From: Candidatus Eiseniibacteriota bacterium | GTDB taxonomy: Bacteria > Eisenbacteria > RBG-16-71-46 > CAVPCR01 | Length of the DNA stretch: 64,000 nucleotides | Reading direction: 5' to 3' | NCBI GenBank assembly: GCA_963702435.1 | Contig: CAVPCR010000005.1 | Coordinates: forward strand, 145,721-209,720 | In this document: positions 9,901 to 35,475 of the stretch, piece by piece | Layout: each line of letters begins with the position of its first letter | Position numbering within the stretch: the first letter of the stretch is position 1 | Translations under genes and position numbers: made by a program | The notes under the pieces: model-generated | Databases searched by the model: none | The model's input: the letters and a program-made list of their open reading frames with translations, nothing else | Told to the model about the DNA's origin: nothing

Positions 9901-10506
9901 CTTCGCGACCGCCTGCGACCAGCCGTCGCCGTATCCCGCGGTTCCCCCCCAGCCGCAGTGCTCCGGGTTCAGGTGGAGGTTCGTCCCGATCCACACCGAC
10001 CAGCCGCCGGCGAGCGGGTCGGGGCCGTCGTTCGCCCCGTTGTTGGCGTGCGTCGTCGCCCGGTGCGCGAAGGCGCCTCCATCGAAGTCGAAGTCGTACG
10101 TGCCGTCGGTTCGCCAGTGTCCCGTACCGAGCGCCGAAGGACCGTCGCCATGTGTCGTCAGGTCTGCGAACGTCCACCCGTCGCGGTACTGGTTCCCGAC
10201 CGGATCCCCATCCAGGAAGAACTCTGGCGCCTCGCCCGAGTCGGCCTCCCAGTTCCACACGCCGCCGCGGACGACAGCCCCGTTGCCGAAACCGCTCCCG
10301 CCGAACCACACCGTGTCGGCATGGGCGTCGAGCCACCCCGGGTCGTGTGCTGCGAGCGCCTCGCGGTCCGCTGCCCCGTCATAGGGTTGTGGAACGAGCG
10401 GCACGGCGCCCGCCGGCGCAGCGGCCAGAAGAAAGGAGAGAGCGGCAAGAGGCACGGCACGGCAGTTCCATGTGGCCATGGCAGCCTCCACTGTGACCTG
10501 GCCCAT
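6961..10506 (-). CDS. giant secreted protein of unknown function with T9SS C-terminal sorting domain, paralog 1
   Basis: Signal peptide (MATWNCRAVPLAALSFLLAAAPAGA). About 1180 aa with many conserved Cys. The C-terminal about 80 aa (RYSIATRGRVTLRICDVSGRLVRTLVDE...VVWDGRNDAGRAVGRGVYLYEL...KLVVLE) fits the T9SS CTD. No HExxH or other recognisable catalytic motif. Confidence 0.65.
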   Translation of the reverse strand: MGQVTVEAAMATWNCRAVPLAALSFLLAAAPAGAVPLVPQPYDGAADREALAAHDPGWLDAHADTVWFGGSGFGNGAVVRGGVWNWEADSGEAPEFFLDGDPVGNQYRDGWTFADLTTHGDGPSALGTGHWRTDGTYDFDFDGGAFAHRATTHANNGANDGPDPLAGGWSVWIGTNLHLNPEHCGWGGTAGYGDGWSQAVAKQFRFRNAPGPGEFMPPAPNALLDLTFFHRYAVEQSHDTCWVEISADGVRWEQVGTVANGNGIWTGGTLVAPEPGPLGGPGSATLGPWPGGEGDLWVRLRLATDDLVSDESAGRAFLFAWQVDEIAVRANGMPIDRADFETGMSGWEPRRCEGQDVVLTGDPLRPAGRIAPLSAIACPPVVPCPEACAIEGNVLLFADQDECAAHVAKTAAVSPPFAIGGGAHPDLDGDVGRLFLGDVYADGGSGLFDAMFVVCFHYWPVDANHCPYAPPPGSPGAGAIFNWSSVSATSCQSFALGAGARCQQDLLHDMSSYLPATADSVILAVGMYSQCIGGSCNPSDASGPFIDNMRFGVYDSSTELRAQTYQRYADSFPTSNTGFPLSATARMDGAYTPVFGGPENPPRWVRPDTAGVEVQAPNAAVFLRFAVERGACQPNLMHPFFAAFPPSAPGSFPDALLWHEARMDTARWYGGGLPGGYMTCFHDADAGNGTHWTGAPPGNEPCDDILPDGLFTPGTTVYYFFEARDAVSSQVLGTFPFGRGRQPITTEPSSKGLWLQSNVLPSLAPDCSGAYAHSMLVVSDYATQSVPGRATVERERLVATLSSLGLGFDVYDVVATNYSECYDGIGRREDRPTQQPRPPHNGATDLMLAGYDCIWYTAGLSDHRTLSDRRTLSLFGGQPSMDQQKLETWLAGCSEGNPRLLLVEGTGWAADIDQNTTNGPSFLANRGVDVLARDYAQQLAANDLRRCARLAGTALAPDFAGEAFGSGCPDDVDLNVLGAINSGEPVAHFVESLEDGHDPVNCADDVARPAWQAVVRKTNPNHSCEKSVTMSFAFAELLPLDCVEQCLFDNFVVNGANAELLIDLFQWAGQPVNAGPIGVGPEASPRLVNALAAVAPNPVSRRGTAIRYSIATRGRVTLRICDVSGRLVRTLVDEEQEPIAGGRAVVWDGRNDAGRAVGRGVYLYELRAPGYVAARKLVVLE

Positions 10507-10513
10507 GTCGTCC

Positions 10514-13500
10514 TCACTCGAGCACGACGAGCTTCCGCGCCGCCGCGTAGCCCGGCGCGCGGAGTTCGTAGAGATACACCCCGCGTCCGACCGCGCGCCC
10601 GGCGTCGTTCCGCCCGTCCCACACCACCGCGCGCCCGCCGGCGATCGCCTCCTGCTCCTCGTCCACCAGTGTCCGCACCACGCGCCCACTCACGTCGCAG
10701 ATGCGGAGCGTGACCCGCCCGCGCGTCGCGATCGAGTAGCGGATCTCGGTCCCCCGCCGCGCCGCCGGGTTCGGCGCCGCCGGGGCGAGCGCGTTCACGA
10801 ACCGCGGGGTTCCCGCCGGCGCAACCCCCACCGGCGCCGCGTTCACCGGCTGTCCCGCCCACTGGAAGAGATCGATCACCAGCTCCGCGTTCGCGCCGCT
10901 CACGACGTAGTCGTCGAACAGGCACTGCTCGATGCAGTTCAGGGGCAGGAGCTCGGCGTAGGCGAAGCTCATCGTCACCGACTTCTCGCACGAGTGATTC
11001 GGGTTCGTCCGCCGCACGACCGCCTGCCAGGCGGGGCGTGGCACGTCGTCCGCGCAGTTCACGGGGTCGTCGCCGTCCTCGAGCGACTCGACGAAGTAGG
11101 CCACCGCCTCGCCGCCGCCCGTCGACGCGAGTACGCTGATCGGGATGTCGTCGGGACAGCCCGAGCCGAACGCCTCGCCCTCGAAGTCGGGCACGAGCGC
11201 GGTCCCGGCGAGCCGCGCGCAGCGCCGGAGGTCGTTCGCAGCGAGTTGCTGAGCGTAGTCGCGCGCGAGCACGCCGATGCCGCGATTGCCGAGGAACTGC
11301 GGGCCGTTCACCGTGTTGGACTGGATGTCCGCGGCCCACCCCGTGCCCTCGAGGAGGAGGAGACGCGGGCTCCCCTCGCTGCACCCCGCAAGCCACGTCT
11401 CGAGCTTCTGCTGGTCCATGGACGCCTGGCCGCCGAAGCTCGGGAGCGTGTTCCGGTCGCTCAGTGTCCCGAACTGGCTCAAGCCCGACGCGTACCAGAT
11501 GCAGTCGTACCCGGCGAGCATGAGATCGGTGGCCCCGTTGTACGGCGGCCGCGGCTGCTGTGATGGCCGGTCCTCGCGGCGTCCGATCGTGTCGTAGCAC
11601 TGGTTGTAGTTGGTGCTGACCGCATCGTAGACGTCAAACTCGAGTCCGAGCGAGGCGAGCGTCGCGGTGAGGCGGGAGCGCTGCGTCGTCGCTCGGCCCG
11701 GCACGCCGCCGGTCGCGTAGTCGTTGACGATCAGCATGCTGTTGGCGTAGGTGCCGTCGCAGGCCGGCGCCAGCTCGGGCAGGTTGTTGATCTGGAGCCA
11801 GTAGTCCTTGTGGTTGGCCGTCGTCCGCACGATGCCGCGGTTCCTCGCGAGGGGGAACGTGGCGACGACGCTGCCGGCGCCGGCCCCCGCGGCGACCCGC
11901 GCCTCGAAGAAGTAGTAGACGTTCGTCCCCGCGGTGAAGAGGCCGTCCGGCAGGATGTCGTCGCACGGCTCGACCGCCGGCGGCGCGCCCGTCCAGAACG
12001 TCCCGTTCCGCGGATCGTCCTCGTGGAAGCAGGTCATCCAGTACCCGTTCACGGTCTGCGAGTTGCTCATCGCTTGCGCCGTGTCCATCCGCGCCGCGTG
12101 CCAGTTGAGGTCGTTCGGAAAGGTGCCGGGAGCGGTGGGCGGGAAGGCCACGAAGAACGGATGGGTCAGGTTCGGCTGGCATGCGCCGCGCTCGACCGCC
12201 CACTTGAGGTACACCGCGGTGTTCGGAGCGGCAATGGCAGTGGCCGCCGAGTCGGCACGCACCCAGCGCATCGGGATCTCGATGCCGAGCGACATGGAGA
12301 GGCTGAAGGCGGCGTCGGTGCGGGTGGTCGCGGCGAGCGGGAAGCCCGTGTTCGAGGTCGGGAAGTTGTCGGCAAAGCGATCGAGGGTGTTCGACCGCAG
12401 GGCGGGGCCGCTCGGGTCGTACACGCCGAAGCGCACGTTGTCGATGAAGGGGCCGGTGGCGTCGCTCGTGAGGCACGATGCGCCGTCACACTCGGCGACC
12501 ATGCCCAGGGTGAGGATCACCGAGTCGGCGCTGGCCGGGATGAACGCCGACCAGTCGAAGGTCATGTTCCACATGCAGTGGATACCCGCCCCGAGTCCGA
12601 TGATGTGACAAGCGCCGTCACCGCCCTGCTGCGACCAGTTGAAGACCGAGCCCCCGCCGGGCGATCCGGCCGGCGGCGCGTACGGGCAGTGATTCTCGTC
12701 GAAGGGCCAGTAGAGGAAGCAGAAGTAGAGAGCCGTATCGAAGAGCCCGCTCCCGCCGTCCGCGTACGCATCGGCCTCGAGGATCCGCCCCGCGTCGCCA
12801 TCGAGGTCGGGATGGGCGCTGCCGCCGATCGCGAAGGCCGGGGAGAAAGCCGCTGTCGTCGCCTCGTGGGCCGCGCACTCGTCCTGGTCCACGAAGAGGA
12901 GAATCCGATCCTCGATGGCGCAGTTCTCGGGGCAAGCGACCAGTGGCGGGCCAGGCGGGCAGGCGATGGCGGAGAGCGGCGCGATGCGCCCCGCGGGCCG
13001 CTGCGGATCCCCGGTCAGGACGACATCCTTCCCCTCGCAGCGCCGCGGCTCCCAGCCGTCCATGCCCGCTTCGAAGGTGGCCAGATCGATCGGCGCCCCG
13101 TTCATGCGGAGCGCCAGGTCGTCCACCTGCCAGGCGTAGAGATACGTGCCGCCCGCGCTCTCATCGGAGAGCAGGGCATCGGTGGCGAGCCGGAGGCGGA
13201 CCCAGAGATCCCCCTCGCCGCCGGGCCAGCGACCGAGGCTCGCCGAGGCCGGTCCGCCGAACGGCCCCGGTTCGGGCGCGGCGCGCGTCCCGCCGGTCCA
13301 GATCCCGTTCCCGTTGGCCGCCGTCCCGACCTGCTCCCACCACACGCCGTCCGCCGAGATCTCGACCCAGCACGTGTCGAAGTTCTGCTCGACCGCGTAG
13401 CGATGGAAGAAGGCGAGATCGAGCGTGGCATCGGAAGGCGGCGGCGGGAACTCCCCGGGCCCGGGCGCGTTCCGGAAGCGGAACTGCTTCGCGATCGCCT

Positions 13501-14065
13501 GCGACCAGTAGTCACCATACCCCGCCGTCCCCGGCCACGCGCAATGCTCCGGATTCAAGTGGAGGTTCGTCCCGATCCACACCGACCAGCCGCCGGCGAG
13601 CGGATCCGGGCCGTCGTCCACGCCGTTGTTGGCGTGGGTCGTCGCCCGGTGCGCGAAGGCGCCGCCATCGAAGTCGAAATCGTACGTGCCGTCGGTCCGC
13701 CAGTGCCCCGGGCCGAGGGCGGAGGGCCCATCGCCGGCCGTCGTCAGGTCATCGAAGGTCCAGCCGTCGCGGTACTGGTTCCCGACCGGATCCCCATCGA
13801 GGAAGTACTCCGGGGTCTCGCCGGAATCGGCCTCCCAGTTCCAGAGGCCGCCGCGGGCGACCGTGCCGTTCCCGAGCCCGCTCCCGCCGAACCACACCGT
13901 GTCGGCGTGGGCGTCGAGCCAGCCTGGGTCGCGCGCAAGCACCGCCTCGCGATCGATGCCGGCGTCATACGGTTCGAGCACGGGGCGCGCCGCGCCGGCC
14001 GGCGCGGTGGAGACGAGAAGCGAAAGGACGGCCAGAAGGCCGGCGCAGCGGATTCCCGCGGTCAT
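10514..14065 (-). CDS. giant secreted protein with T9SS C-terminal sorting domain, paralog 2
   Basis: About 70% identical to paralog 1 along its length. Signal peptide MTAGIRCAGLLAVLSLLVSTAPAGAA. GGTGGAGGG RBS before ATG 14065. Only an 8-nt gap to paralog 1. Confidence 0.65.
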   Translation of the reverse strand: MTAGIRCAGLLAVLSLLVSTAPAGAARPVLEPYDAGIDREAVLARDPGWLDAHADTVWFGGSGLGNGTVARGGLWNWEADSGETPEYFLDGDPVGNQYRDGWTFDDLTTAGDGPSALGPGHWRTDGTYDFDFDGGAFAHRATTHANNGVDDGPDPLAGGWSVWIGTNLHLNPEHCAWPGTAGYGDYWSQAIAKQFRFRNAPGPGEFPPPPSDATLDLAFFHRYAVEQNFDTCWVEISADGVWWEQVGTAANGNGIWTGGTRAAPEPGPFGGPASASLGRWPGGEGDLWVRLRLATDALLSDESAGGTYLYAWQVDDLALRMNGAPIDLATFEAGMDGWEPRRCEGKDVVLTGDPQRPAGRIAPLSAIACPPGPPLVACPENCAIEDRILLFVDQDECAAHEATTAAFSPAFAIGGSAHPDLDGDAGRILEADAYADGGSGLFDTALYFCFLYWPFDENHCPYAPPAGSPGGGSVFNWSQQGGDGACHIIGLGAGIHCMWNMTFDWSAFIPASADSVILTLGMVAECDGASCLTSDATGPFIDNVRFGVYDPSGPALRSNTLDRFADNFPTSNTGFPLAATTRTDAAFSLSMSLGIEIPMRWVRADSAATAIAAPNTAVYLKWAVERGACQPNLTHPFFVAFPPTAPGTFPNDLNWHAARMDTAQAMSNSQTVNGYWMTCFHEDDPRNGTFWTGAPPAVEPCDDILPDGLFTAGTNVYYFFEARVAAGAGAGSVVATFPLARNRGIVRTTANHKDYWLQINNLPELAPACDGTYANSMLIVNDYATGGVPGRATTQRSRLTATLASLGLEFDVYDAVSTNYNQCYDTIGRREDRPSQQPRPPYNGATDLMLAGYDCIWYASGLSQFGTLSDRNTLPSFGGQASMDQQKLETWLAGCSEGSPRLLLLEGTGWAADIQSNTVNGPQFLGNRGIGVLARDYAQQLAANDLRRCARLAGTALVPDFEGEAFGSGCPDDIPISVLASTGGGEAVAYFVESLEDGDDPVNCADDVPRPAWQAVVRRTNPNHSCEKSVTMSFAYAELLPLNCIEQCLFDDYVVSGANAELVIDLFQWAGQPVNAAPVGVAPAGTPRFVNALAPAAPNPAARRGTEIRYSIATRGRVTLRICDVSGRVVRTLVDEEQEAIAGGRAVVWDGRNDAGRAVGRGVYLYELRAPGYAAARKLVVLE

Positions 14066-14115
14066 GGCAACCCTCCACCTGTGGCCGGGACGGTCTCTTC
14101 CGTCGGCATAAATAC

Positions 14116-14132
14116 TGCAAGCATTGTGCCGA
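14116..14132 (-). promoter_or_regulatory. sigma-54 (-24/-12) promoter upstream of the giant paralogs
   Basis: The minus-strand sense reads cGGCACaatgcTTGCAg: a GG-N10-GC geometry matching TGGCAC-N5-TTGCW, about 50 nt upstream of ATG 14065. Confidence 0.55.
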
Positions 14133-14272
14133 GTCGGGGCTGTTTCTTCCAACGCTCGCATCGGCGATGACTTGCGTTTCCTGGTGACCGACGCAGCTTC
14201 CTGCGCCGGGCACGCTGTGTCATGGACATGACACTCCCCGGGGACCGGTATCTACAATGGCCATGTGAGATC

Positions 14273-17035
14273 TCATCGCACGATACCGTGGCGCCTCATC
14301 CTGGCGATGAGCGTCGTCCGCTTGAGGCCGAGCGCCGCCGCCGCCGCGCTCTGGTTCCAGTCGGCGTCCATCAGCGCCTGGATGATGCGGCGGCGCTCGA
14401 GCCGGCTCAGCTCCTCGTCGAGGGCGAGATGCTCTGCGGCATCCGTTCGCCTCCCGGCGCTGGCGGCGAGGTCGGCGGACAGGAGATCGAGACCCACCTC
14501 GCGATGGCCTCCGGCGAGGGCGACCACCCGCCGCACCTCGTTCTCGAGCTCGCGCACGTTCCCCGGCCACGGGTAGCTGAGACATGCCTCCCGCGCCGCG
14601 GGCGAGAAGCGGAGCTGGGGCTTGCCGGCCGCCGCGGCGTAGGCATGGAGGAAGTGATCGAGGAGAAGACCGATGTCCTCGATCCGCTCCCGGAGCGGCT
14701 TGAGCTCGATCACGACCGTTGCCAGCCGGTAGTAGAGATCCCGCCGGAAGCGGCCGGCGCGCACATCCTCCTTCAGGTCGCGGTTGGTCGCCGAGATGAC
14801 GCGGATGTCCGCCCGACTCATGGCGGACTCGCCGATCCGCCGGAAGTCGCCGGTCTCGAGGAAACGAAGGAAGCTCACCTGCACTGGGAGCGGCATCTCC
14901 CCTACTTCGTCGAGGAAGAACGTGCCGCCGTCGGCCGCCTTGAGGAGCCCCTTGCGCTCGCGATCGGCGCCCGTGAACGCCCCGCGCGTGTGGCCGAAGA
15001 GCTGGCTCTCGAGAAGCTCCTGCCCGAGACCGGTGGGGATGAGCGGCACGAAGGTGCCGCTTCGCCGCGGACCGGCGGCGTGGATGGCGCGCGCGACGCG
15101 CTCCTTCCCCACGCCGGTCTCGCCGAGGATGAGCACCGGCACATCGGAGCTGCCGAGGCGCTCGACCTGCTCGAGCACTTCCAGCATCGCCGGGCTCTGT
15201 GCGATGAAGGTCCCGCTCAGGAGAGTGGTCCGCTCCGCGTCCCGCCCCGGGCTCGATCCCGGCCGCCGGCCACCGGAGACGGACGCGGCGGCGACTCGGA
15301 GCCCGGCCGCACGTCCGGGCTCGTCGGCGCTCGCGCGCTCGGCCGCGCGGGCGAGCGCGTTCGCCTCCTCGTTCATGCGCTGCCGATCCGATGACAGCCC
15401 TTCCGCGGCGAGGACCGGGCGCGCGCGATCGAGCATGGCGCGGGCTCGATCGAGCATGCCGGCCCTGATCTGCAGGCGCGCCCGCACGAGCTGGCAGCGG
15501 GCCACCCCGAGGGCGAGCCCGAGCTCGGCGAAGATGCGCTCGGCCTCGGCCAGCACCACGAGCACGTCCTCGATGGGCATCGCCGCCGACCGCACCTCGA
15601 GCTCGGCCAGGCGGAGGAGCGAGTGGGGAAGCTCCGATTGCCGGCCGGCGGCCCGGAGAAGGTCGACCGAACGATGGATCTCGGTGGCGGCGCGGTCGAG
15701 ATCTTCACGCTCGATCGCAAGATCCGCGAGCACGCGATGCGTGAGCCCCTCCTCGACGCGATCGCCAGCGGTGCGGGCGGCGCTGAGCGCCAGCGCGGCG
15801 TCCGCGGCGGCGGGATCGAGCCGGGCCAGGGCGAGGTGGGCCTCCGCCCGCCGGCGAAAGGCGCCGGCCGCATTCCGCGGGTTGTCGCGATCGAGCCAGC
15901 CCACGAGCGCGTCGAAATGGCGAAGAGCTGCTTCGTGCTCCCCGCGCGCCATCGCCAGCTCCCCGGCGACCGCCTCCAGCCACCCCCGGATCCGATCGTT
16001 CACCTCGCCCGCGGCCCGTTCCGCCTCGGCGCAGATCCCGGCGGCCTCCCGGAAGCGGCGCCGGAATACGCAGAGCCTCGCGAGCGAGATCAGCGGGTCC
16101 ACCGTGGCGCGCCGGCTGCCGCTCGCCTCGTGCACGCGGATGCTCTCCCGGAGATTGGCTTCCGCCTCGTCCCATTTCCCCATCGCCATGTTGACGATGC
16201 CCAGATTCAGGAGCACCGCCCCCGCCCGGGCTCCGCTCTCGCCGGCGCCGATGGCTGCGGCGCGCCGCAGGTAGTTGTGCGCCGACTCGACATGCCCGGA
16301 GAGAAGCGACACGATCCCGAGGTTCGAGAGGAGTTCGAGCATCCGCGGGCGGCGGTCCCGCGCGTGCTGGAACGAGTAGGCGTCGAAGAGCAGATCGAGA
16401 GCTTCATCGGGACGCCCGGCCACCGAGGAAGCGATGCCCAGGCACTGCCGGGCGTCGGCCGCCGCGCCGGGCCAGTTCTCGGCGAGCGCCAGGTCGAGCG
16501 CCCGGCGCGCCGGCTCGAGGGCGGCCGGCTCCCGATCGTCCTGGATCGCGAGCCATGCGGTCGCGAGCAGGCGGCAGACCGCAGCTGGAAGCGGGGGTGT
16601 GGGACCGAGGATCTCATCGGCCGCGCGCACGTGGTCCCGCGCCTCGTCGGAGGAGTTCGCGCGCGCCAGCAGGGAAGCCAGCCGGTAGCGAACGATCGCC
16701 ACCTCGACCGGAGGAGCTGCGCCCGCGTGGGCGGTGAGCCACTCCCGGTATGCCTCGATGGCCGCGTTCCCCCGGCCCTGATCGCGAAGGTCGTCGGCGA
16801 GCCGGCGGGATGCAGCGGCCAGGAGGAGGTGGTCTCCCTCCCTCCTGGCGCGGGCGGCGAGCAGGACGAGCCGGTCGCGGTCGGGAGGCGCCTCGACGAG
16901 ATGCAGATCGAGGTCGGGATCGGCCGCACGGGCCCGGGGTGACACCGGAGGGGGCGCTGGGGCCATAGCGTCAATCTTTCGACGTGGCGTCATGGACTTG
17001 ACACCTACTCGATTCTCCCAGGACAGCGGGTCCAT
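14273..17035 (-). CDS. sigma-54-dependent transcriptional activator (bEBP) with N-terminal TPR repeats, AAA+ domain and C-terminal Fis-type HTH
   Basis: GETGVGKE Walker A, GAFTGA sigma-54 contact motif, and RRDLYYRL. C-terminal AAAALGLKRTTLIARMRRHGI helix-turn-helix. GGGAGGG RBS before ATG 17035. Alternative starts at 16993 and 16966. Confidence 0.85.
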   Translation of the reverse strand: MDPLSWENRVGVKSMTPRRKIDAMAPAPPPVSPRARAADPDLDLHLVEAPPDRDRLVLLAARARREGDHLLLAAASRRLADDLRDQGRGNAAIEAYREWLTAHAGAAPPVEVAIVRYRLASLLARANSSDEARDHVRAADEILGPTPPLPAAVCRLLATAWLAIQDDREPAALEPARRALDLALAENWPGAAADARQCLGIASSVAGRPDEALDLLFDAYSFQHARDRRPRMLELLSNLGIVSLLSGHVESAHNYLRRAAAIGAGESGARAGAVLLNLGIVNMAMGKWDEAEANLRESIRVHEASGSRRATVDPLISLARLCVFRRRFREAAGICAEAERAAGEVNDRIRGWLEAVAGELAMARGEHEAALRHFDALVGWLDRDNPRNAAGAFRRRAEAHLALARLDPAAADAALALSAARTAGDRVEEGLTHRVLADLAIEREDLDRAATEIHRSVDLLRAAGRQSELPHSLLRLAELEVRSAAMPIEDVLVVLAEAERIFAELGLALGVARCQLVRARLQIRAGMLDRARAMLDRARPVLAAEGLSSDRQRMNEEANALARAAERASADEPGRAAGLRVAAASVSGGRRPGSSPGRDAERTTLLSGTFIAQSPAMLEVLEQVERLGSSDVPVLILGETGVGKERVARAIHAAGPRRSGTFVPLIPTGLGQELLESQLFGHTRGAFTGADRERKGLLKAADGGTFFLDEVGEMPLPVQVSFLRFLETGDFRRIGESAMSRADIRVISATNRDLKEDVRAGRFRRDLYYRLATVVIELKPLRERIEDIGLLLDHFLHAYAAAAGKPQLRFSPAAREACLSYPWPGNVRELENEVRRVVALAGGHREVGLDLLSADLAASAGRRTDAAEHLALDEELSRLERRRIIQALMDADWNQSAAAAALGLKRTTLIARMRRHGIVR

Positions 17036-17128
17036 GACAAGGCCCTCCCTGCGCTGGGCAGGGAGGGCCTTGCACTGACCTGAGGTTCGGGCCGCGGTCG
17101 GGCCGCTGTCGGCCTCCTGCGGCTCGGA

Positions 17129-19210
17129 CTACCGGATCCGCGTGACCTTGCCGGTGGCTTCGAACCCCGTGCTGGACAGGCGATACAGGTAGATGCCCGC
17201 GGGCAGATCGTTCCCGCGCGCATCCCGGCCGTCCCAGCTCACCATCCCCGGGCCGGCGCCGATACGACCGTCGATGAGCGTCCGCACCAGTCGCCCGTCG
17301 GTCCCGTAGACCCGGAGCGTCGCCGGTCCATCCTGCGGGACGACGAAGCTGATCGTCGTCGCGCTCATGAATGGATTCGGCCGCACCGAGACCTGCGTCA
17401 GGCCCGGAGCCGTTCCCGGATCCTCGATGCTCGTCGGGCCGTCGGGAGGCGTGGTCGTGAACCGCAGCGCGCGCCCGGCCGCGAGCCCATGCGCCGCCGC
17501 GTTCAGATGACCACTCGCCAGGTACTGGATGCCGACCGTCTCGGTCTGGTTCTCGATGCCGACCGTGCACCCGGAGGCATCGCTCACCACCGCGTACTGG
17601 ATGTCGATCTGCCCGTCTCCGGTCTCGGTCGGATGCATCGCCGGATTGTAGAGAATGAACTGGAGGGTCTCCGGCACGCCGAGCCCGGCGTCGTGGTAGT
17701 GCTCCACTCCGCTGAACTCGACGATGTAGCGACCGCCCGCGGCATCGTCCCACGCGTAGACCTTCCCGCTGCCGGCGGCTGCCGGGTTCAGGTCGGTCCA
17801 GAAACCGGCGATCATCTTCGGCGGTCCCTCGGGGCCGGGGATCGAGCCGTTCGAGACCGCGTACTCGGTGGTCGCCCCGAGGGCCAGGAACCCGTTCGAG
17901 GAGATCGAGATCCGATTGTCCACGTTGCCGTACAGCTTGAAGCTGAACGACATGGTCCGCTGTACGGTCTGATCATCACCCAGCGAGACCAGGGTTCCCG
18001 GTCCGCCCCGCGTGGGATCGATCTCCACCCAGTTGTAGGTCGGCCGCGGAACATTGCCCGGCCCGTCCACGTCCTCGTACGCGTAGTAGCCGTAGCTGTC
18101 CGCTCCGATCGGGTCGGTGGGCGAGCCGACGCCAAGAGTCAACGTCGTCTGCTTCGTGTAGCCCCCAGCCGCCGCCAGGTCGAAACTGAAGGGGATCTCG
18201 TATCCGTACGGCACTGCGAGGACCACGCTCAGCGCGAAGGGATCGGCGCTGTTGTCGCCGGTCGCCAGGTACGCGATGTCGGGCCAGGTCCCCGCACCGT
18301 CGGTGACCGTCGCATTGGCATCGCTCGTCGACAGCGCCCCGGCGATCGTGGTTGCACCGACCGGATTCAGGTTCATGAGCGTGAGCGCGATCTCGGCGTC
18401 CTCGCCCGGATCGAGCCGGCCGTTCCCGTTGCCGCCCGCGGTGTCGTCGATCACGACACTCGAAACGACGAGCTCGGGCTGATCGAGGTGGAAGAAGATC
18501 TTCGCCGCCTGGTGCACTTCCTTGGTGGCGTCGTCCTGCACGAAGACCACGCACTCGAGGTTCCTCTCGACCCAGGCCGGGCCGAGCGCGAAGGTCTGCG
18601 TCCGCGTGACCGGCACGCTGGGGGCGAACGTGATGACCTCACCGGTTGGCGCGGGGAGGAAGTCACGCATGCCGTGGTTCAGCGTCTGCGGGAGCCGGTA
18701 GGTCGAACCGGCCGGCGGGGCCACACCGCTCTCGGTGATCGCGAAGCGCAAAGCCCCCGTCACGGGGGCGCCGCTCGTGTTCGTGATCTCGGCCGTGATG
18801 GTGCCGGCGACGCGATCCCCGCTCAGGTTGATGCGGAGCGGGCTCGGCATCGCCGCTCGATCGAGGACCATCTGCTCCCAGGCCCCGCCGGAAGTGCCGT
18901 CGACAATGCCGTCGAAGTAGGTGTGTGGCGTGTAGCTGACGCTGTAATAGGTGATGCGAGCCCGGTTCTCGTCGATGTTGGCCTGATAGAACGGATCCCC
19001 GATGCCGGGCCACCAGGCGTGAACGGCGATGGTGGCGACCATCTCGGGATGATTCGCAACGATCTGGTCCAGCACACGGCTGGCTGCTGGGCAGCCTGGT
19101 CAGGATGTGTTCGTGAACTCCTCGATGAGAACCATCCTGGGCTCGGCCGTGGCCAGGCTCGAAAGCCCGATCACCGCCACGAGCGCTCCGGCGAGTGCAA
19201 GCGTCCTCAT
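17129..19210 (-). CDS. T9SS-sorted thioredoxin-like protein with an in-frame TGA (candidate Sec codon at 19100-19102) in a UxxC active-site motif
   Basis: ATG 19210 with a GGAGGT RBS. Signal peptide MRTLALAGALVAVIGLSSLATA. Then VLIEEFTNTS-[TGA]-PGCP aligns with the EEFTxTWCGxCP thioredoxin-like motif. The frame continues into the 17129..19075 ORF. The C-terminus (PNPF..TTISF...LRVYGTDGRLVRTL..WDGRD..G..LPAGIYLYRL) is a classic T9SS CTD. Confidence 0.6.
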
Positions 19211-19381
19211 TGGCTGACCTCCTGGCTGGATGTGGACAAGGGCCGTCGGACTTCCCCGGCCGGAACCATTCTACACCTGAAAGTCATCTAAACATGAGGA
19301 AATGAGCCGGAGGGGCTGCGATGGGCCCTGGGGGGCCCGGGGGCCTCGCGACAGGGCGGCGGCCTACGGCCTCCAGGGCGG

Positions 19382-22300
19382 TCAGGGGACGGCTATCACC
19401 GTGGCCGGGAGCTCGCGCACGATGATCTCCCCGGCAGCGCTCGCCTCGACGCGGGCGCCGTTGACCGTGGCGGAGCGAACGGCCGCGAGCGGGGTGCGAA
19501 CGGCAATCCCGCCCGGTGGGATGCGGGTGCCGGCCTCGATCTTGACCTCGACGCTCGCGTCTCCCGCGCCCGCGTGCCGCATGGTGAACGAGAGCGGACC
19601 GTGGTGCGTGCTGAGGTTCCGCACCGTGAGGCCCGGTCCGGCGAGCCACTCGCTCGGTACGCCCGCGCCGAGGACGAGCGACTCGTCCGCCTCGCGCTCG
19701 TACGCGAGCATGTCGAGGATGGAGCGGATGAAGTCCGATCCGACCCAGGTGTGCGGGAGGTCGCCGACGAAGTGCGGGACGCGGTCCTCGCGGCGCACCA
19801 CCTCCGGCCACTGCCGCCAGCCGGTCGGCTTCTGCTGCGTCAGGAACCAGCGCGTGAGCTCCTGGGCGCGATCCCGCCAGCCGAGGCGCACGAAGGCGCC
19901 GATGTTCCGCATCTCGTAGGGCGTGAACGCATCCCACGGCGCGCCGTCGCGCCGCGCGGTGAAGAACTCCCAGTAGCGCTCGAACGTGCGCTCGAGCGCG
20001 GCCGGATCGAGGATCGCGGCGGCGTTGGTCGGGGCCAGGGCGATCGTGGTCGAGGTGGCGTCGAAGTCGCCGAGATCGGCGCATCCCGGGATGTAGTCGA
20101 TCGCGTGCACGCGCCGGGCCGCCTCGACCGAGGCGGCGAGGTCATGGGCGAACTCGTCGCGGATCGCGGCGAGGCGGGCCGCTTCGGCCGGGTGGCCCAG
20201 TTCGGCCGCGAGGAACGTTGCGTCCTTGAAGCCGAGGAAGGCGAAGAAGTCGTCCCAGTAGGAGTGCATCGGCTTCGCCGAGTAGCCCTCGTGGCTGATC
20301 GAGGGCGGGAGGAGCCCGTAGAAATGGAGTTTGTCAGGGGTCTCGTACTCCGGCGTCCGGCGCTCGTGGCGGAGCGAGTCGAGATAGGCGGCCGCGGCGA
20401 CGACGCGCGGCCACATCGCCGCGGCGAGCGTGCGATCGCGCGTGTGCCGGTAGTACTCGGCGACGAGGTAGATGAACTCGCCCGATGAATCGTGCTCCGG
20501 CACCGGATCGGCGCCCCGCCAGTCGACGACGCAGGGGATCTTCCCGTTCGGATACTGGTGGGGCGCGAACCACTCGATGAACTCGCGCACCGCATCCGCG
20601 TGCCCGAGGCGCAGCAGCGCCGTCGAGGTGAGCGAGCCGTCGCGGATCCAGGAGCGCGCGTAGGCCCGCGTGCCCGGCTGGATGGCGGGACCGGCGCGGT
20701 TGACGAGGATGTAACGGAGCTGAGCGCGCAGGGACTCGGCGATCCACTCCGCAGGCGCCGGAAGTGAGCGGAGGTCGATCGTGGCCCGTTGCATGGACGA
20801 GTCCCAGGCGCGCCAGTACGCCCCCACCTGCTCCGTCACCCAGTCGAACGCTGCGCTCTGGCCCTCGACCATGGGCGGCGGCGGCGAGTCCGCGTGGAGC
20901 GGAATGACGACATGCACCTGGTCCTTGCCGATGTAGTACGGCTTTCCCGCCGTCGCGACATTCATGGGGAATGCAAGCACAGCGGATGCGGCACCGAAGG
21001 CGTCCTCGACGGCGCTCTTGTCCGGCAGCCTGCCTTGCGCCAGGTAGTCGGCGACGGCGTCGCCCTGGTCGAACGTCGCCGCCCCGAAATCCGCTGGTGG
21101 AGTGAGGCAGAAGAAGGCCGGTCGCCCATTGGCGCGCAGGATGCGTCCGTCCACGGCCAGATCGCGGATCGGCGCCGTCCCGCCGAGCTTGTTGAGGAAC
21201 TGAGCCGGGGGATTCACCTGGAACGGGCGCACGGCGAGGCAAAGGGTGGCCTGCACCGGCTCTGCCGACGAGTTGGAGACCCCGTAACTGACGACAATCG
21301 ATGACGCGCCGGGATCGCCGGTCGCGAATGCGTTCACCGAGAGGTGGAGCGGCGGGACCTCGCGCGAGACGGAAGGCATCACCTCCAACCCCTGACTCGT
21401 CGTCCCCTCGGCCCAGGTGAACAGCGTGTCCCCGACCATGAGGAACGGCTCGATCGAGAAATGCTCCTCCCCCGCCTCGATCGCTCCGTCCTCGCTGAAC
21501 AGGACCTCGCGGCGGTCGTTGTCGGCGCCGACCACCGTCCAGTAGCTCTGCTCGCCCGACATCCCGCGCGGGTAGAGCCCGCGCCGCGCATCGGCCGCGA
21601 TCGCCTGGAAGAACGCCTCGCGTGTGGCCGACCAGGCGAGCGGCTGGACGGCGACCGCGGCGAGCGCCGCGCGCTCCGCCGCTTCCGGCGCGCCGGTCAG
21701 GCGCACCCGCACGTGGCGCGATTCGCTCTCCGGGAGATACAGGTAGTCGCGGCCGCCGTTCCCGCCCGCGACCGTGCGCGCGGCCGTCCACGGGCCGCCG
21801 CCCTCCTCCGCCGTCTCGATCACGTAGTCGCTCGCGCCGCCCTCGGGCGCCCAGTCGAGGACGAGCCCGCCATACTCGCGCGGCACGCCGAGATCGAGCG
21901 CGAGCCACGGGGCGCGATCGCCGGCGGCCGGACGCCACGCGGTCGTCGAATCGCCATCGAGCGCGCGCGCCGCCGCGTGCCCGCCTTGCGCCGAGGAAGC
22001 GCTCGCCACCGGCGGCGGCGGCGCCTGGTCGGCCGGCGGGAGCGGCGTGAGGGTCGAGATCGTCGATCCACACGCTTCCCTGGCCGCCGCTCCCCGCGGT
22101 GACGACGATCTCGAGCGCGGCGACATGCCGGATCTCGCCCCCGCCCTGCGGTCCCCAGGCGAAGGCGATCTGGCGCTTCTTGATCGCGAACTTCTGCCAC
22201 TCTGCAGGGAAGACGTAGTCGCGGCGCACGAACCACCAGACGTTCTCGCCCGTCGCGTCGAGGAGCTTGAACTCGACGTGATTGGACGGCGCCGCGCCCC

Positions 22301-22581: not shown

Positions 22582-23487
22582 TCACGCCCTTGACGCTGCC
22601 CGCCAGGATGCCACGGACGTAGCCCGCTGGAAAACGAGGAAGACGAGCAGCGCCGGGAGCACGGTCAAGACCGATCCCGCCATCATGAGCTCGGTGTCCT
22701 GCACGTGCTCGCCGGCCAGGTTGGCCAGCGCGACCGGGAGCGTGTACGTCGCGCCTGTCGCTCAGGATGATCAGCGGCCACATGAAGTCGTTCCACGCGG
22801 AGAGGAAGGTGAACGTGGCGAGCGTGACGAGGATCGGCTTGATGACGGGCACGACGATCGGTCAGGAAGATGCGCGAACTCGCCCGCGCCGTCCACGCGC
22901 GCCGCGTCGAGGAGATCGTCCGGGATGCCGAGGGCGTACTGGCGGACGAGGAAGATGCCGAAGACGCTCGCGAGGTAGGGGACCAGCACCCCGACGTAGG
23001 TGTTCACGAAGCCCGAGCTCGCGCAGGAGGAGGAAGAGCGGCAGCATGCCGACCTGCGCCGGCACGACGAGCGCCAGCATGAGGACGCGGAAGAGCCGGT
23101 CCCGCCCGCCGAAGCGGAGCTTGGCGAAGGCGTAGCCGGCCATGCCCGTTGACGAGCACCGAGAGGAGCGTGGCGACCGATGGTGATGAGCGCGCTGTTC
23201 AGGAAGTGGCGCGCGAGGTCGAGCCGGGTGAAGAGCGCGACGTAGTGCTCGAGCGTCGGCCGGCTCGGCCAGAAGCGGCGGCGGGACGTGTTCGCCTCCC
23301 CCGTCGGCATGAAGGAGGCCGCGACCATCCAGGCGAGCGGCGTCAGCGTGATCGCGGCGCCGAACACGAGCGCCGCGTGCAGCAGGAACGACGCGCGAGC
23401 CGCCGGCTCATCGCCCGTTCTCCGCTGCGGAGCCGCGAGCTGGAGGAGCGTGCCGGCGAGCGTGATCACGAGGAGGAGGACCGCCAT
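22582..23487 (-). pseudogene. ABC sugar transporter permease (MalG-like) with at least 3 frameshifts
   Basis: Fragments AGYAFAKLRFGGRDRLFRVLMLALVVPAQVGMLPLFLLL, PILVTLATFTFLSAWNDFMWPLIILS, TLPVALANLAGEHVQDTELMMAGSVLTVLPALLVFLVFQR and YVRGILAGSVKG* lie in three different frames. Confidence 0.6.
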
Positions 23488-24242
23488 GCGTCGAGGCGAT
23501 CCCCATCCGCCACCAGCGGAAGCCCTCCTCGTACATGAGGAGGACGACGCTCGTCGTGCTCCGGAGCGGCCCGCCCTGCGTCATCACGTAGGGCTCGGCG
23601 AAGAGCTGGAAGTAGCCGATCATGGTCGTCACGCCCACGAACAGGAAGGTCGGCGCGAGCCCCGGCAGGGTGACGTGCCGGAAACGCTGCCAGGCGCCTG
23701 CGCCGTCGATCGACGCGGCCTCGTAGAGCTCCTCCGGGATCGCTCTGCAGCCCGGCGACGAAGATGAGCATGTTGTAGCCGAAGTTCTTCCAGACGGCGA
23801 GGAGGATGATCGCCGGCATCGCCCACGCGGATCGCCGAGCCAGTCGATCGGACCGAGGCCGAACCAGCCGAGGGCGTGGTTCAGGAGACCCGTAGCGCGG
23901 GTGATAGAGGTAGCGCCAGACGATGGCGACCGCGACGAGGGTGGTCACCACCGGGGCGAAGTAGATGGTGCGGAAGAGCGCGCGGAGCTTGACCGCGCGC
24001 GCATTGAGGAGGAGCGCCGCGCCGAGCGAGACGAGGACCGAGAGCGGACCGCCGACGAGGACGAAGTAGAGCGTGTTCCGGAGCGCCTGCCAGAAGAGCG
24101 AGCTCGTGAGCGTCGCCGACGTAGTTCTTGAGCCCGACGAAGCGGGCCGTGTCACGGGGCGCCGATCGCGTAGATGTCGAAGTCGGTGAGGCTCAAGCAG
24201 GAGACCGGCCAGCACCGGCAGGACGAAGAAGAGCCCGATCAA
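23484..24242 (-). pseudogene. ABC sugar transporter permease (MalF-like), frameshifted
   Basis: LRNTLYFVLVGGPLSVLVSLGAALLLNARAVKLRALFRTIYFAPVVTTLVAVAIVWRYLY in one frame, then AMPAIILLAVWKNFGYNMLIFVAGLQS after a frame break. Confidence 0.55.
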
Positions 24243-24249
24243 CGCCGAG

Positions 24250-25625
24250 CGCGGGCGCGAGGAAGAGCCAGGCCGCCCGCGCCTTCCGGCGCTCGATGTG
24301 GGCGCCGCGCGCGCTCATGGCGCGACCGCTCCGCGCTGCGCCGGCCCGGGCGAGCAGCCAGCGCCGCTTCTCGAGGATGCGCTCGACGTCCGCGTCGAGG
24401 AGCGCGAGCGCCGAGTCGGCCGCGACGGCGCCGCGCGACCGCCATCTCGGACCGCTCCTGCACGCGGATCGCGATCTGCTCCCACTCGGGGATCTTCGGC
24501 GTCGCCACGACGCGGCGGAGCTGTCGCCGGAAGGCGCGGATGTTCGGGTCGCGCGGCGAGGGAGGAGTCCTCCCAGGCCTGCGACCGCGCCGGCAGGTCG
24601 CCGGTCAGCGCGTAGAAGCGGAGCTGCTGTCCGGGCGCGGACAGGAACTCGATGAACTTCCACGCCGCCTCCGGGTGCGGCGAGCTCGCGAAGAGGACGA
24701 GGCTCGAGCCGCCGGCGAGCGAGACGCCCGGATGCGCCGCGTCGGGCCCGGGAAGGGCGCCGTCGCCCACGCGTCCTGCAGTCTCGGGCGGCAGCCGCCG
24801 CCGGAACTCGCCGAGGTTCCACGGGCCGGTGATGTACATGGCGAAGTAGCCGCGCGCGAACTCCTGGTACATGTTCGCGATCTCGTTGTTGCCGACCGGC
24901 GGGGCGAGCCCGTCCCGGAAGAGTCCAGGTAGAAGTCGAAGGCGCGGCGGAACGCGGGCTCGCTGAAGGCCCCGCGACGTCGCACTCGTCCGCCAGGAGC
25001 GGCGAGCCGGCCTGGAGCCCGAGGATCACCGGCTGCGCACCACTCGTTGAGCGGCAGGAAGATGGCATACCGATCGGCGCCGACCTGGCGCTTGACCGCC
25101 TCCATCGCCGCCCGCCACGCGGGCCAGGTCGGCCGGCATCGCAGTCGATAGCCGGCCGCGGCCAGGATGTCCTTGCGGTAGAAGAGCAGGCGCGTGTCCA
25201 CGTACCACGGGATGCCGTACGGCGACGCCGTCGACCACGTTCGTGCTCCAGATGCCCGGAGAAGAAGTGCGTCGGGCCGCACGGCCGCCGACCGCCTCGA
25301 TCCACGGCGTCGAGCGGGGCGAGGGCGCGGAGCGCGACGAACTCGGCGAATCCAGGTGTTCCCGAGCTGCGCGAGGTCGGGCGTCGAGCGGCCGACGAAG
25401 GCGGTCAGGAGCTTCTCGTGCGCGGCCGACCACGGGACCTGCTGCACCTCGACCCGGATCCCCGGATGCGCGCGCTCGAACTCCGGGACCAGCTCCTGGC
25501 CACCACCTCACCCTCGCGCCCCATGCCCCCAGAAGCGGAGCACCGTCTCGCCGATCCTCGCCCGCGCGCCGGCAGCCGGCGAGGAGGAGGATGAGGGCGA
25601 GCAGGAGGACGCGCGGCGGCGACCG
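24250..25625 (-). pseudogene. ABC transporter extracellular solute-binding protein (family 1), frameshifted
   Basis: Lipoprotein signal RVLLLALILLLAGC. Then GETVLRFWG..., QQVPWSAAHEKLLTAFVGRSTPDLAQLGNTWI, YGIPWYVDTRLLFYRKDIL and MYQEFARGYFAMYITGPWNLGEF are spread over three frames. Coordinates are approximate. Confidence 0.5.
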
Positions 25626-25749
25626 CCGAGCGTGGCGCGCGGCTCCGCTCGATCGTCCCGCCTTGCCCGCCTTCGGCGCGTCGAGCCAGCCGCCGCTGAA
25701 ACCGGCCGCCTGAGACCGCGGACCACATGCGGGTTCTTCCGCATGGTCC

Positions 25750-27121
25750 GCCAGACGAGCCCGCTCCGGTAGTTCTCGACCATGGCCAGGATCGGCCCCT
25801 GGTCGATGCCCAGGTAGTCGGTGTCGAACCAGCCCGCGCGCCGGATCGACCCGGCCGTGCTGCACCGGGACCGTCGAGCGTGAAGGTCGGATTGAACGCG
25901 TCGAGGAAGCCGTACGGTCGAGAAGACGTTCTCGCCGTACCGCTCGCGCATCGAGAGGAGTGTCGGCACCACGAGCTCGGGGGCGAAGGCGATCGAGCCG
26001 CCCGCGGCCGGACGGCGACAAGGTGCCGTCGTCCTGGACCTCGGTGAACGAGGCGCCGCGCGCCCAGTAGGTGTGGAACTCGGCGCTTCCGGCCGTCGAT
26101 CTCGACCTCGCGATCGACCGGCCGTCGCAGGCGGTGAGCCCCCAGATGCTCCGGTCCGTAGCCGGCCCAGCCGGCCGGATTGGCCACCGCGTAGGCGTGC
26201 TGCGCGAGGACGGCGCGGCGCGAGTTCTCGAAGTAGTCGATCCCGCGCTCGCGCATCGCTGCGTCCTGGATGCCGCGGAGATCGATCCACACGTGCGTGT
26301 ACTGGTGCCCGAAGAGCGGAGCGAACCCGACGTGCTCCTGGCCCTGGAAGCTCGCCCCAGCGGTACCCGCTCGGTCCCACGCCGACCACGCCACGGCGAG
26401 CGACCGGATGGGTCGGCGAGCCGAGCGCCAGGAGGTAGAGAAGCATCGCCTCGTTGTAGCCGCGCCAGTCGTAGGGGAGGAAACCGCCCTCCGGAGTCCA
26501 GCCGTGGCCGATCGTGGGCGGCCGCACCTGCGCCCACTGCCAGTCGACGCGCGCGTAGAGCGAGTCGGCAACGGCCGCGGATCCGGACCTCGTCGCCGGC
26601 CATCCTGGTCGAAGTAGCGACTGGCAGAAGAGCACGCCGGCCAGCAGGAGCGCCGTGTCCATGGTCGAGAGCTCGACGTCCTCGAAGCGGGCTCCCGTCT
26701 CCGGGTCGAGGAAGTGGTAGAAGAACCCGCGGTACCCGCTCGCGCCGGCGCGCGCCGTGTCCTGCCGCGCGGCGGCGAGGAAACGAAGCGTCGACAGCAC
26801 GCGGGTCGCGCGCCTCCTCGCGCGAGATGTAGCCGCGCTCGACGCCGATCGGATAGGCGGTGAGCGCGAAGCCGGTGGCGCCGACGCTGGCGAAGGAGCG
26901 GGTCGGCGCAGCGATCCGGGGCGAGGCCGGTCTGCGGGTCGGCAAGATCCCAGAAGTAAGCGGAAGGTGCGCTCCTCGAGCGTGTCGAGGAAGGCGCTCT
27001 CGTGGGCGGCGAGCGCCGGCAGCGCGGAGGTGGAGCGGGTGTCCGGCGTCTCGCGCTGGCAGGAAGAAAGGAGCACCCCGCACACACAGGATGCCGCGAT
27101 CAGGATCGCCCTTCCCCGCAT
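25750..27121 (-). pseudogene. GH144/DUF3131-like (beta-1,2-glucanase-like) lipoprotein, fragmented over three frames
   Basis: Lipoprotein signal MRGRAILIAASCVCGVLLSSC. Segments GFFYHFLDPETG..ELSTMDTALLLAGVLF, ATGFALTAYPIGVERGYISREEA, HVGFAPLFGHQYTHVWIDLRG and GWFDTDYLGIDQGPILAMVENYRSGLVWR each sit in a different frame. Coordinates are approximate. Confidence 0.5.
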
Positions 27122-27260
27122 CACCTGGGCCCTCCCCGCCGCCGGTGGCCTTGCACTGCCGTGGCCGAGAGCAACGCACCGGACTGCCGCAGGAGAAGCT
27201 AGCACACGCCCCCGGGCACGGGAAGTCCGGGCGGGTGCATCCGGGCAACCAGGGCGAACG

Positions 27261-29315: not shown

Positions 29316-29768
29316 GTGAGTCACGGCATCTCACGCGCCGCGCAGTACGCGGTGCGCACCCTCGTCCACCTCGCGCTCGAGCGTGATGCAGCGGCCTCCC
29401 CGGTCAGGGACATCGCGGAGGCCGAGGGGATTCCGCCGCACTTCCTGGCCAAGCTCGTCGGGAAGCTGGCGCGGGCCGGCCTCGTCGATGCGTTCAAAGG
29501 CCCCGGGGGAGGCATCCGCCTGGCCAAGCCCCCGACCCGGATCAAGCTCATGCAGGTGATCGAGGCCGTGGACGGCCCCGCATTCCTGTCCGCGTGCTTT
29601 CTCGGACTTCGCTCGTGCTCGGACGAACAGCCCTGCGCCATGCATGAGAACTGGAAGGCGCTGCGCACGCGGCTGGCCGCCGACTTCGATCGGATCACGA
29701 TCGCCGAGCTCGCCGCGTCGGCGCGACGAAACCCGCCGGCCGCGGGCGGATCCGGCGCGGCGCGGTAG
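29316..29768 (+). CDS. Rrf2-family (IscR/NsrR-like) transcriptional regulator with a three-Cys Fe-S ligand pattern
   Basis: N-terminal wHTH ([13 protein letters not shown]...[27 protein letters not shown]) and a C-x6-C-x5-C cluster ([14 protein letters not shown]). Confidence 0.8.
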
Positions 29769-29862
29769 AGCCCACGTTCCGGTTGCCGCCGCGCCCCCGA
29801 GGTCCTACCATCGACCCCTTGCCCACCACGACCCCGTTCACCCTGTTCGACTTCACTCTACG

Positions 29863-35475
<5,613 letters not shown>

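Follow-up and report, generated by a model that had tools for sequence, protein, structure and literature searches.

We found that a gene on the minus strand of the window (the window being the whole 64,000-nucleotide stretch of DNA analysed here), spanning positions 17129 to 19210, is most probably a genuine selenoprotein gene, in which the UGA at codon 37 would be decoded as selenocysteine (Sec) to yield one exported protein of 693 residues. We place the probability of this reading, which comes from comparative sequence analysis, at roughly 0.9. The gene represents a mis-annotated, Eisenbacteria-centred branch of the Omp28-related UxxC selenoproteins, a type that is not new and had been predicted from ocean metagenomes.

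The reading frame and its internal TGA codon

Translation of the frame from 19210 to 17129 gave one internal stop, the TGA at codon 37. The N terminus reads MRTLALAGALVAVIGLSSLATAEPRMVLIEEFTNTS-stop-PGCPAAS..., with VLIEEFTNTS-stop-PGCPAAS as the immediate context, and 656 sense codons follow the TGA before the terminal TAG, so that the product has 693 residues when Sec is included. The elements read along the gene and around its 5' end were as follows.

17129..19210, minus strand: complete coding sequence of the predicted selenoprotein, with Sec at residue 37 and the TAG stop at 17131-17129
19217..19222, minus strand: Shine-Dalgarno-like GGAGGT, 7 nt 5' of the ATG at 19210-19208, read directly off the sequence
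19145..19210, minus strand: predicted signal peptide, residues 1-22, MRTLALAGALVAVIGLSSLATA followed by EP after the cleavage site, which was placed by eye; type I, with no lipobox Cys
19100..19102, minus strand: in-frame TGA taken as selenocysteine, codon 37
19091..19102, minus strand: predicted U-P-G-C redox motif (UxxC), residues 37-40, at the N terminus of helix alpha-1 of the thioredoxin fold, by alignment to the CPHC of 1fo5 and the CASC of 2axo

The earlier note on this DNA had already pointed to the ribosome-binding site, the ATG at 19210 and the signal peptide, all of which were confirmed by direct reading and translation. Its open frame continuing past the TGA to a C-terminal domain of the type IX secretion system (T9SS) also held, since the 656 codons end in a region matched by FlgD_ig and, marginally, by TIGR04183.

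The genome has a G+C content of about 70%, and TGA terminates roughly one in two ORFs with a strong codon-position G+C bias (high GC3). TGA is therefore a normal stop codon here, and there is no reassignment of the code. The window was also scanned for other selenoprotein genes, using in-frame TGA codons with coding signal on both sides together with the SECIS core described below, and none was found; an in-frame TGA candidate at 15392 proved to be an antisense artefact. Consensus scans gave no terminators, and their sole promoter-like match, at 17040-17012, lay within the next gene.

Conservation of the TGA codon and of the hairpin that follows it

Species-representative genomes and JGI metagenomes supplied the DNA of orthologous loci. 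Some 20 distinct homologues, 40-82% identical in protein sequence, shared the TGA at this codon; 17 of them were translated at the N terminus, and 3 more were recovered by a motif scan for the SECIS core. In all of the translated homologues (17/17), the stretch 5' of the TGA encoded, in frame with it, a Met followed by a hydrophobic signal peptide and the motif (V/L)(L/V)xE(E/Y)xTNxx. These genes came from Eisenbacteria MAGs, contigs of other uncultured bacteria, and sediment and freshwater metagenomes, the closest named sources being Candidatus Eisenbacteria / Eiseniibacteriota MAGs (L005, 75% identity; L002, 58%). Several contigs (L004, L006, L085, L086 and L089) carried tandem arrays of two or three Sec-type genes, including short forms of 351-369 aa that consist of the Omp28-type module and the C-terminal domain alone. 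At the TGA site, the full-length orthologue P0008 (686 aa, 52% identity) has Cys: it reads ...EEFSNTSCPYCPAAS... (SCPYCPAAS), and the codon is TGT (position 6112 of L161).

Searching with a profile of the N-terminal module returned more than 250 Omp28-like proteins, mostly of about 350 aa, whose sources include MAGs of Bacteroidota, Ignavibacteria and Chlorobi. The T9SS tail model matched 51 of the best 120 of these relatives. A CxxC occupied the Sec position in all 11 full-length relatives that were read (11/11), in a motif of the type E.FT[ST][ST]TC[GP]PC, which replaces the 'EEFTxTWCGxCP' that the earlier note had given for related proteins. Its placing of the TGA on the site of the nucleophilic Cys was borne out by the recurrence of a TGA there in about 20 genes, by the Cys of P0008 and by the aligned CPHC of 1fo5. 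It had also proposed aligning orthologues at this codon, and that alignment shows TGA conserved in the same set of genes and TGT in P0008.

Downstream of the TGA, an alignment of 17 distinct TGA-flanking regions contained an invariant block, CCAGC-N-GU-NN-GCUGG, which RNAalifold folded into a 5-bp stem capped by a 5-nt loop; all 5 pairs and the GU of the loop were invariant in 17/17 sequences. In the window gene, the stem begins 16 nt and the apical loop 21 nt after the UGA. The positions are as follows.

19069..19083, minus strand: conserved SECIS core hairpin, with 5' arm CCAGC at 19083-19079, loop CGUGU at 19078-19074 and 3' arm GCUGG at 19073-19069
19085..19090, minus strand: alternative 5' arm CCAGCA (+10..+15) put forward by the earlier note, pairing with the same 3' arm here and unconserved in homologues

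Since the stem never varies, covariation cannot be assessed, and conservation at synonymous sites and coupling to the TGA were used in its place. When 12 long-form genes were aligned by codon, the synonymous-codon identity over the hairpin codons A-S-R-V/A-L was 1.00, compared with a gene mean of 0.57, and ranked 1/117 among the windows of that alignment. The hairpin codons are disfavoured in the genome (CGT, 5.5% of Arg; CTG, 24% of Leu; AGC, 27% of Ser), with a joint probability of 7e-4 for their retention, and changes of Arg to Ser or Gly retain the GU of the loop (CGT, AGT, GGT). When both strands of the window and of the fetched loci (1.12 Mb) were scanned for the 15-nt core (CCAGC-NGUNN-GCUGG), 22 occurrences were found, and in every case (22/22) an Omp28-like gene had its in-frame TGA exactly 16 nt before the core. 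The SECIS element is missing from the Cys orthologue P0008, where the 3' arm is lost (GCCAGCGCCGTGATCGAC). Within these alignments, the synonymous sites, the disfavoured codons and the coupling to the TGA together show that conservation of the hairpin acts at the RNA level.

The published model of bacterial SECIS (bSECIS) elements describes a loop of 3-9 nt whose first or second base is a G followed by G or U, a stem of at least 4 bp, a distance of 16-37 nt from UGA to loop and an MFE of -7.5 or lower (PMC13188914). With its 5-nt loop CGUGU, its 5-bp stem and its 21-nt spacing, the hairpin fits this geometry, and its MFE is borderline, the conserved minimal hairpin reaching -7.3 kcal/mol and thus falling marginally short of -7.5. 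The single-sequence fold of the region was not better than shuffled controls (z = 0.24), so that thermodynamics alone is no proof, and it was rejected as evidence. A SECIS-like hairpin had been anticipated as a 6-bp stem, CCAGCA/UGCUGG. That stem forms in this sequence (-10.3 kcal/mol) and shares the 3' arm of the conserved one, and the expectation of bSECIS geometry was upheld; its 5' arm is not conserved, however, and the conserved structure is instead the nested stem of 5 bp with the 5-nt loop. In the proposed mechanism, the hairpin CCAGC-CGUGU-GCUGG, with GU in its apical loop, would form 16 nt past the UGA during translation of the N terminus and would recruit SelB with Sec-tRNA(Sec), leading to insertion of Sec in place of termination.

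One could also imagine that the hairpin lets the UGA be read through with another amino acid, either Cys carried on tRNA-Sec or near-cognate Trp or Cys, which would give CxxC or WxxC. The minimal size of the hairpin is compatible with this, as are the searches for Sec machinery in the window and the fetched loci: E. coli SelA, SelB and SelD gave no tblastn match to selA, selB or selD in the 64-kb window or in about 1 Mb of fetched loci, and for tRNA-Sec, ARAGORN reported no tRNA and Rfam no match at gathering thresholds within the 64-kb window. Even so, we consider such a readthrough unlikely. The loop GU and the spacing are typical of SelB-dependent bSECIS elements, the homologous curated family NF045500 is already classed as a selenoprotein, and a redox-active Cys at which Sec and Cys alternate is the standard selenoprotein signature (PMC12013277).

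The public gene calls invite a different interpretation. The call for the window gene (P0001) is 648 aa long and begins at the GTG at 19075, 3' of the TGA, and a protein search returned about 27 orthologues with 47-82% identity, nearly all of them 620-650 aa long and beginning just past the TGA position. If these starts, all 3' of the TGA, were taken at face value, the TGA would be a true stop, terminating a leader peptide of 36 residues, and an internal GTG or ATG would start a second protein of about 648 residues. We regard this as very improbable. The called starts differ between orthologues (VLEDIV, MLEQIS, VSRHPE, MITYHV, MSWPG and others), and a conserved start was not seen. The downstream product would have no signal peptide and yet carry a C-terminal sorting domain that depends on export, and the thioredoxin fold would be cut through beta1 and the CxxC. 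Furthermore, the peptide encoded by the 36 upstream codons is itself conserved and runs directly into the fold. If the UGA is instead decoded as Sec, the public calls of the clade (about 27 clusters) are N-terminally truncated and miss both the signal peptide and the active site, and it is through this loss that the proteins resemble cytoplasmic hypotheticals. A rule combining TGA with CCAGC-NGUNN-GCUGG would repair the annotation of the clade.

Finally, the chance that the TGA is a nonsense mutation that has made the gene a pseudogene, or that a TGC or TGT was misread in sequencing or assembly, is negligible: TGA is one base away from the Cys codons and L002 (OZ245046.1) has a frameshift about 15 codons past its TGA (decay or a long-read assembly error), but an assembly made independently for this organism has the identical TGA (L001, the Logan assembly of run ERR11561443, matching window positions 15101-20274 with 100% identity over 5174 nt), some 20 further genes, drawn from separate genomes and metagenomes, share it, and frame and sequence are conserved on either side of it, followed by the conserved hairpin at a fixed distance. 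The pattern of Sec/Cys pairs among the homologues thus excludes nonsense mutation and sequencing error, the alternative that the earlier note had kept beside selenocysteine.

Domain organization and predicted export of the probable selenoprotein

For family searches, Cys was substituted at the stop in the window protein. Four regions were distinguished after the signal peptide.

18491..19141, minus strand: Omp28/HBP35/DUF1223-type module, residues ~24-240, predicted thioredoxin fold plus beta-sandwich
18131..18478, minus strand: predicted Ig-like beta-sandwich domain, residues ~245-360, with boundaries taken from the orthologue model
17441..18130, minus strand: conserved all-beta domain (residues 361-590) for which no close relative has been solved
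17132..17380, minus strand: C-terminal sorting domain, residues ~611-693, T9SS type A / FlgD-Ig-like, by Pfam and NCBIfam matches

Within the N-terminal module, Pfam Omp28 (PF11551) matched residues 87-237 with 48.2 bits, above its cut-off of 34.9. A profile of the module matched the thioredoxin MJ0307 (PDB 1fo5; E 4.7e-7), placing the CPHC active site on the U/C-x-x-C, and it also matched Atu2684 (2axo, DUF1223), with CASC aligned to the same motif; the match to P. gingivalis Omp28 (2r2c) ran across the beta-sandwich half. In the AF2 model of the Cys orthologue P0008 (pLDDT 83.4), beta1 (28-34) is followed by C37xxC40, alpha1 (41-54) and beta2 (59-65). As judged from the model, the module is a thioredoxin fold with U/CxxC at the N terminus of helix alpha-1, and alignment and modelling would put Sec at the N-terminal, nucleophilic position of the UxxC, at the start of that helix. 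The all-beta domain of residues 361-590 also occurs in proteins with C25, legumain or S8 peptidase domains.

At the C terminus, FlgD_ig scored 38.1 bits (cut-off 27) and TIGR04183 Por_Secre_tail a marginal 23.7 bits against its cut-off of 23. The protein therefore combines a tail with a signal peptide, the pair of features by which T9SS cargo was recognized, and is probable T9SS cargo, a status that leans on the marginal TIGR04183 score. Among the genes of the window that were scanned, none was seen to encode T9SS machinery (PorU/V, SprA or GldK-N). We propose that the signal peptide would carry the protein over the inner membrane and that the C-terminal domain would then pass it to the T9SS, ending in release or attachment to the surface. 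By analogy with HBP35 of Porphyromonas gingivalis, the exported protein may act as a thiol/selenol-disulfide oxidoreductase outside the cytoplasm, with the additional beta-domains possibly binding some substrate or surface.

Relation to known selenoproteins and thioredoxin-fold proteins

The closest predicted selenoprotein family is NF045500, the Omp28-related selenoprotein (GOS_C), which, like the window protein, was predicted from metagenomes and has an Omp28-type domain with a single Sec in UxxC. It is listed among the predicted selenoprotein families, as UxxC with one Sec, in a 2026 review (PMC13188914), the sole paper in the literature searched to cite the accession. On the window protein, the family's model covered residues 24-238, the Sec among them, and the shared Sec position is read from this alignment to the model rather than from comparison with a true member. 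The window protein scored 58.6 bits against a cut-off of 200 and thus falls outside the family, the orthologues scored 21-68 bits, and the best 120 further relatives were also far below 200, with no true NF045500 member among those 120. The two also differ in length, the model having 377 positions and the window protein 693 aa with the added Ig-like domain and the 230-residue beta-domain. Given that the window protein, its orthologues and the 120 relatives all lie far below the cut-off, the window protein belongs to a clade of its own within that superfamily, one whose architecture is longer. The existence of this curated Omp28-related UxxC family also means that the remark in the earlier note that a secreted selenoprotein would be unusual was overstated.

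HBP35 of P. gingivalis (PDB 5Y1A) is the closest characterised analogue, albeit with marginal similarity (E 0.013). It has Cys where the window protein has Sec, and it comprises 344 aa and binds hemin, whereas no heme-related evidence was found for the window protein. HBP35 is T9SS cargo, its thioredoxin activity depends on C48/C51 and its surface localisation on the CTD (PMC2907840, PMC3120885). By this analogy, the window protein would most likely work like a Sec version of HBP35.

Against NF033782, the Omp28 outer membrane lipoprotein, the window protein scored 58.7 bits (cut-off 150). It has no lipobox, with no Cys in the signal peptide or in the stretch up to residue 37, which sets it apart from these lipoproteins. 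Compared with Omp28 (PF11551; PDB 2R2C) and DUF1223 (PF06764; PDB 2AXO), the window protein would have Sec in place of the first Cys. Known thioredoxin-fold UxxC selenoproteins comprise Sec-Trx, Sec-Grx, DsbA-like and DsbG-like proteins and the thiol:disulfide interchange protein. As in the window gene, Sec comes first in their CxxC and their coding regions contain a SECIS whose small apical loop carries G(U). What distinguishes the window protein from them is the Omp28-type module together with the T9SS sorting domain, while its gene differs in a SECIS core that is unusually short and invariant in sequence across the clade.

In the literature searched, no paper was found that brought together Omp28 and selenoproteins, or Eisenbacteria and selenocysteine. 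No link between T9SS and selenoproteins was found there either, the two terms co-occurring in an unrelated rabbit-nutrition study, and no relevant mention of such selenoproteins was found in the BSepDB paper. It is conceivable, at slightly less than even odds, that the genes represent an undescribed clade of surface or secreted, T9SS-sorted selenoenzymes that is centred on Eisenbacteria, often arranged in tandem and decoded via a SECIS of 5 bp with a 5-nt loop. No concept would be changed by this, as UxxC thioredoxin-fold selenoproteins, one of them Omp28-related, are already known.

Established extracytoplasmic selenoproteins include periplasmic formate dehydrogenases and [NiFeSe] hydrogenases, and to the short list of such proteins the window gene would add a probable cargo of type IX secretion. 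If the genes do form a clade of T9SS-sorted selenoenzymes, selenium redox chemistry would take place outside the cell, aimed at a substrate bound by the 230-residue beta-domain. The gene itself would imply selenocysteine decoding in the little-known phylum Eisenbacteria. The invariant 15-nt core, at its fixed distance of 16 nt, offers a natural minimal element for testing recognition by SelB.

Tandem Sec-containing paralogues in related contigs

The Sec-containing Omp28-like genes were found as arrays of two or three tandem paralogues per contig, in five of the loci fetched around homologues of the window selenoprotein gene:

L004: TGA at 828, 3106 and 5439
L085: TGA at 1787 and 2935
L086: TGA at 321 and 1423
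L006: TGA at 3040 and ~4163
L089: TGA at 414 and ~1555

Each tandem paralogue carried its own TGA, and the SECIS core was identical in all of them; frequently, a short form of 351-369 aa preceded a long one of ~664-690 aa within the array. Another orthologue with TGA and SECIS core was observed at ~3109-3200 of locus L002, from an Eiseniibacteriota chromosome (OZ245046.1), and its frame shifted ~15 codons past the TGA; this shift could stem from an indel in the assembly or from decay of this copy.

Neighbourhood of the Cys-form orthologue

On L161, the locus with the Cys-form orthologue (P0008), a PEGA-domain protein is encoded two genes past this orthologue (9457-11105) and contains a second Omp28-like CxxC module, VVVEEFTNSGCQGCP. 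A Redoxin/AhpC-TSA gene follows directly, and the region may represent a redox gene neighbourhood. This arrangement of PEGA/Omp28-like and Redoxin/AhpC-TSA genes is a feature of L161 that is not shared with the window.

Other features of the window

Several additional features were recorded in the window:

17040-17070, minus strand: G+C-rich 12-bp inverted repeat, AGGCCCTCCCTG...CAGGGAGGGCCT
6961-10689 and 10514-14251, minus strand: two tandem paralogues of ~1,240 aa each
29560-35475, plus strand: UvrA-type protein of ~1,970 residues

The inverted repeat is located in the gap that separates the selenoprotein stop from a TPR / sigma-54 activator gene with its ATG at 17035. The repeat ends 4 nt upstream of this ATG, and was not called by the terminator scan because it lacks a T-tract.

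Codon periodicity was weak and shifting across ~4.3 kb (22900-27250), where no long ORF had a Pfam match and no tandem repeats were found; A exceeded T on the plus strand (AT skew 0.14-0.20).

The ~1,240-aa paralogues are 75% identical to each other, and both carry a FlgD_ig-type C-terminal sorting domain, beyond which neither had a Pfam match. Finally, the UvrA-type protein contains duplicated UvrA-type ABC ATPase, UvrA_inter and UvrA DNA-binding domains, and is about twice as long as the usual UvrA.
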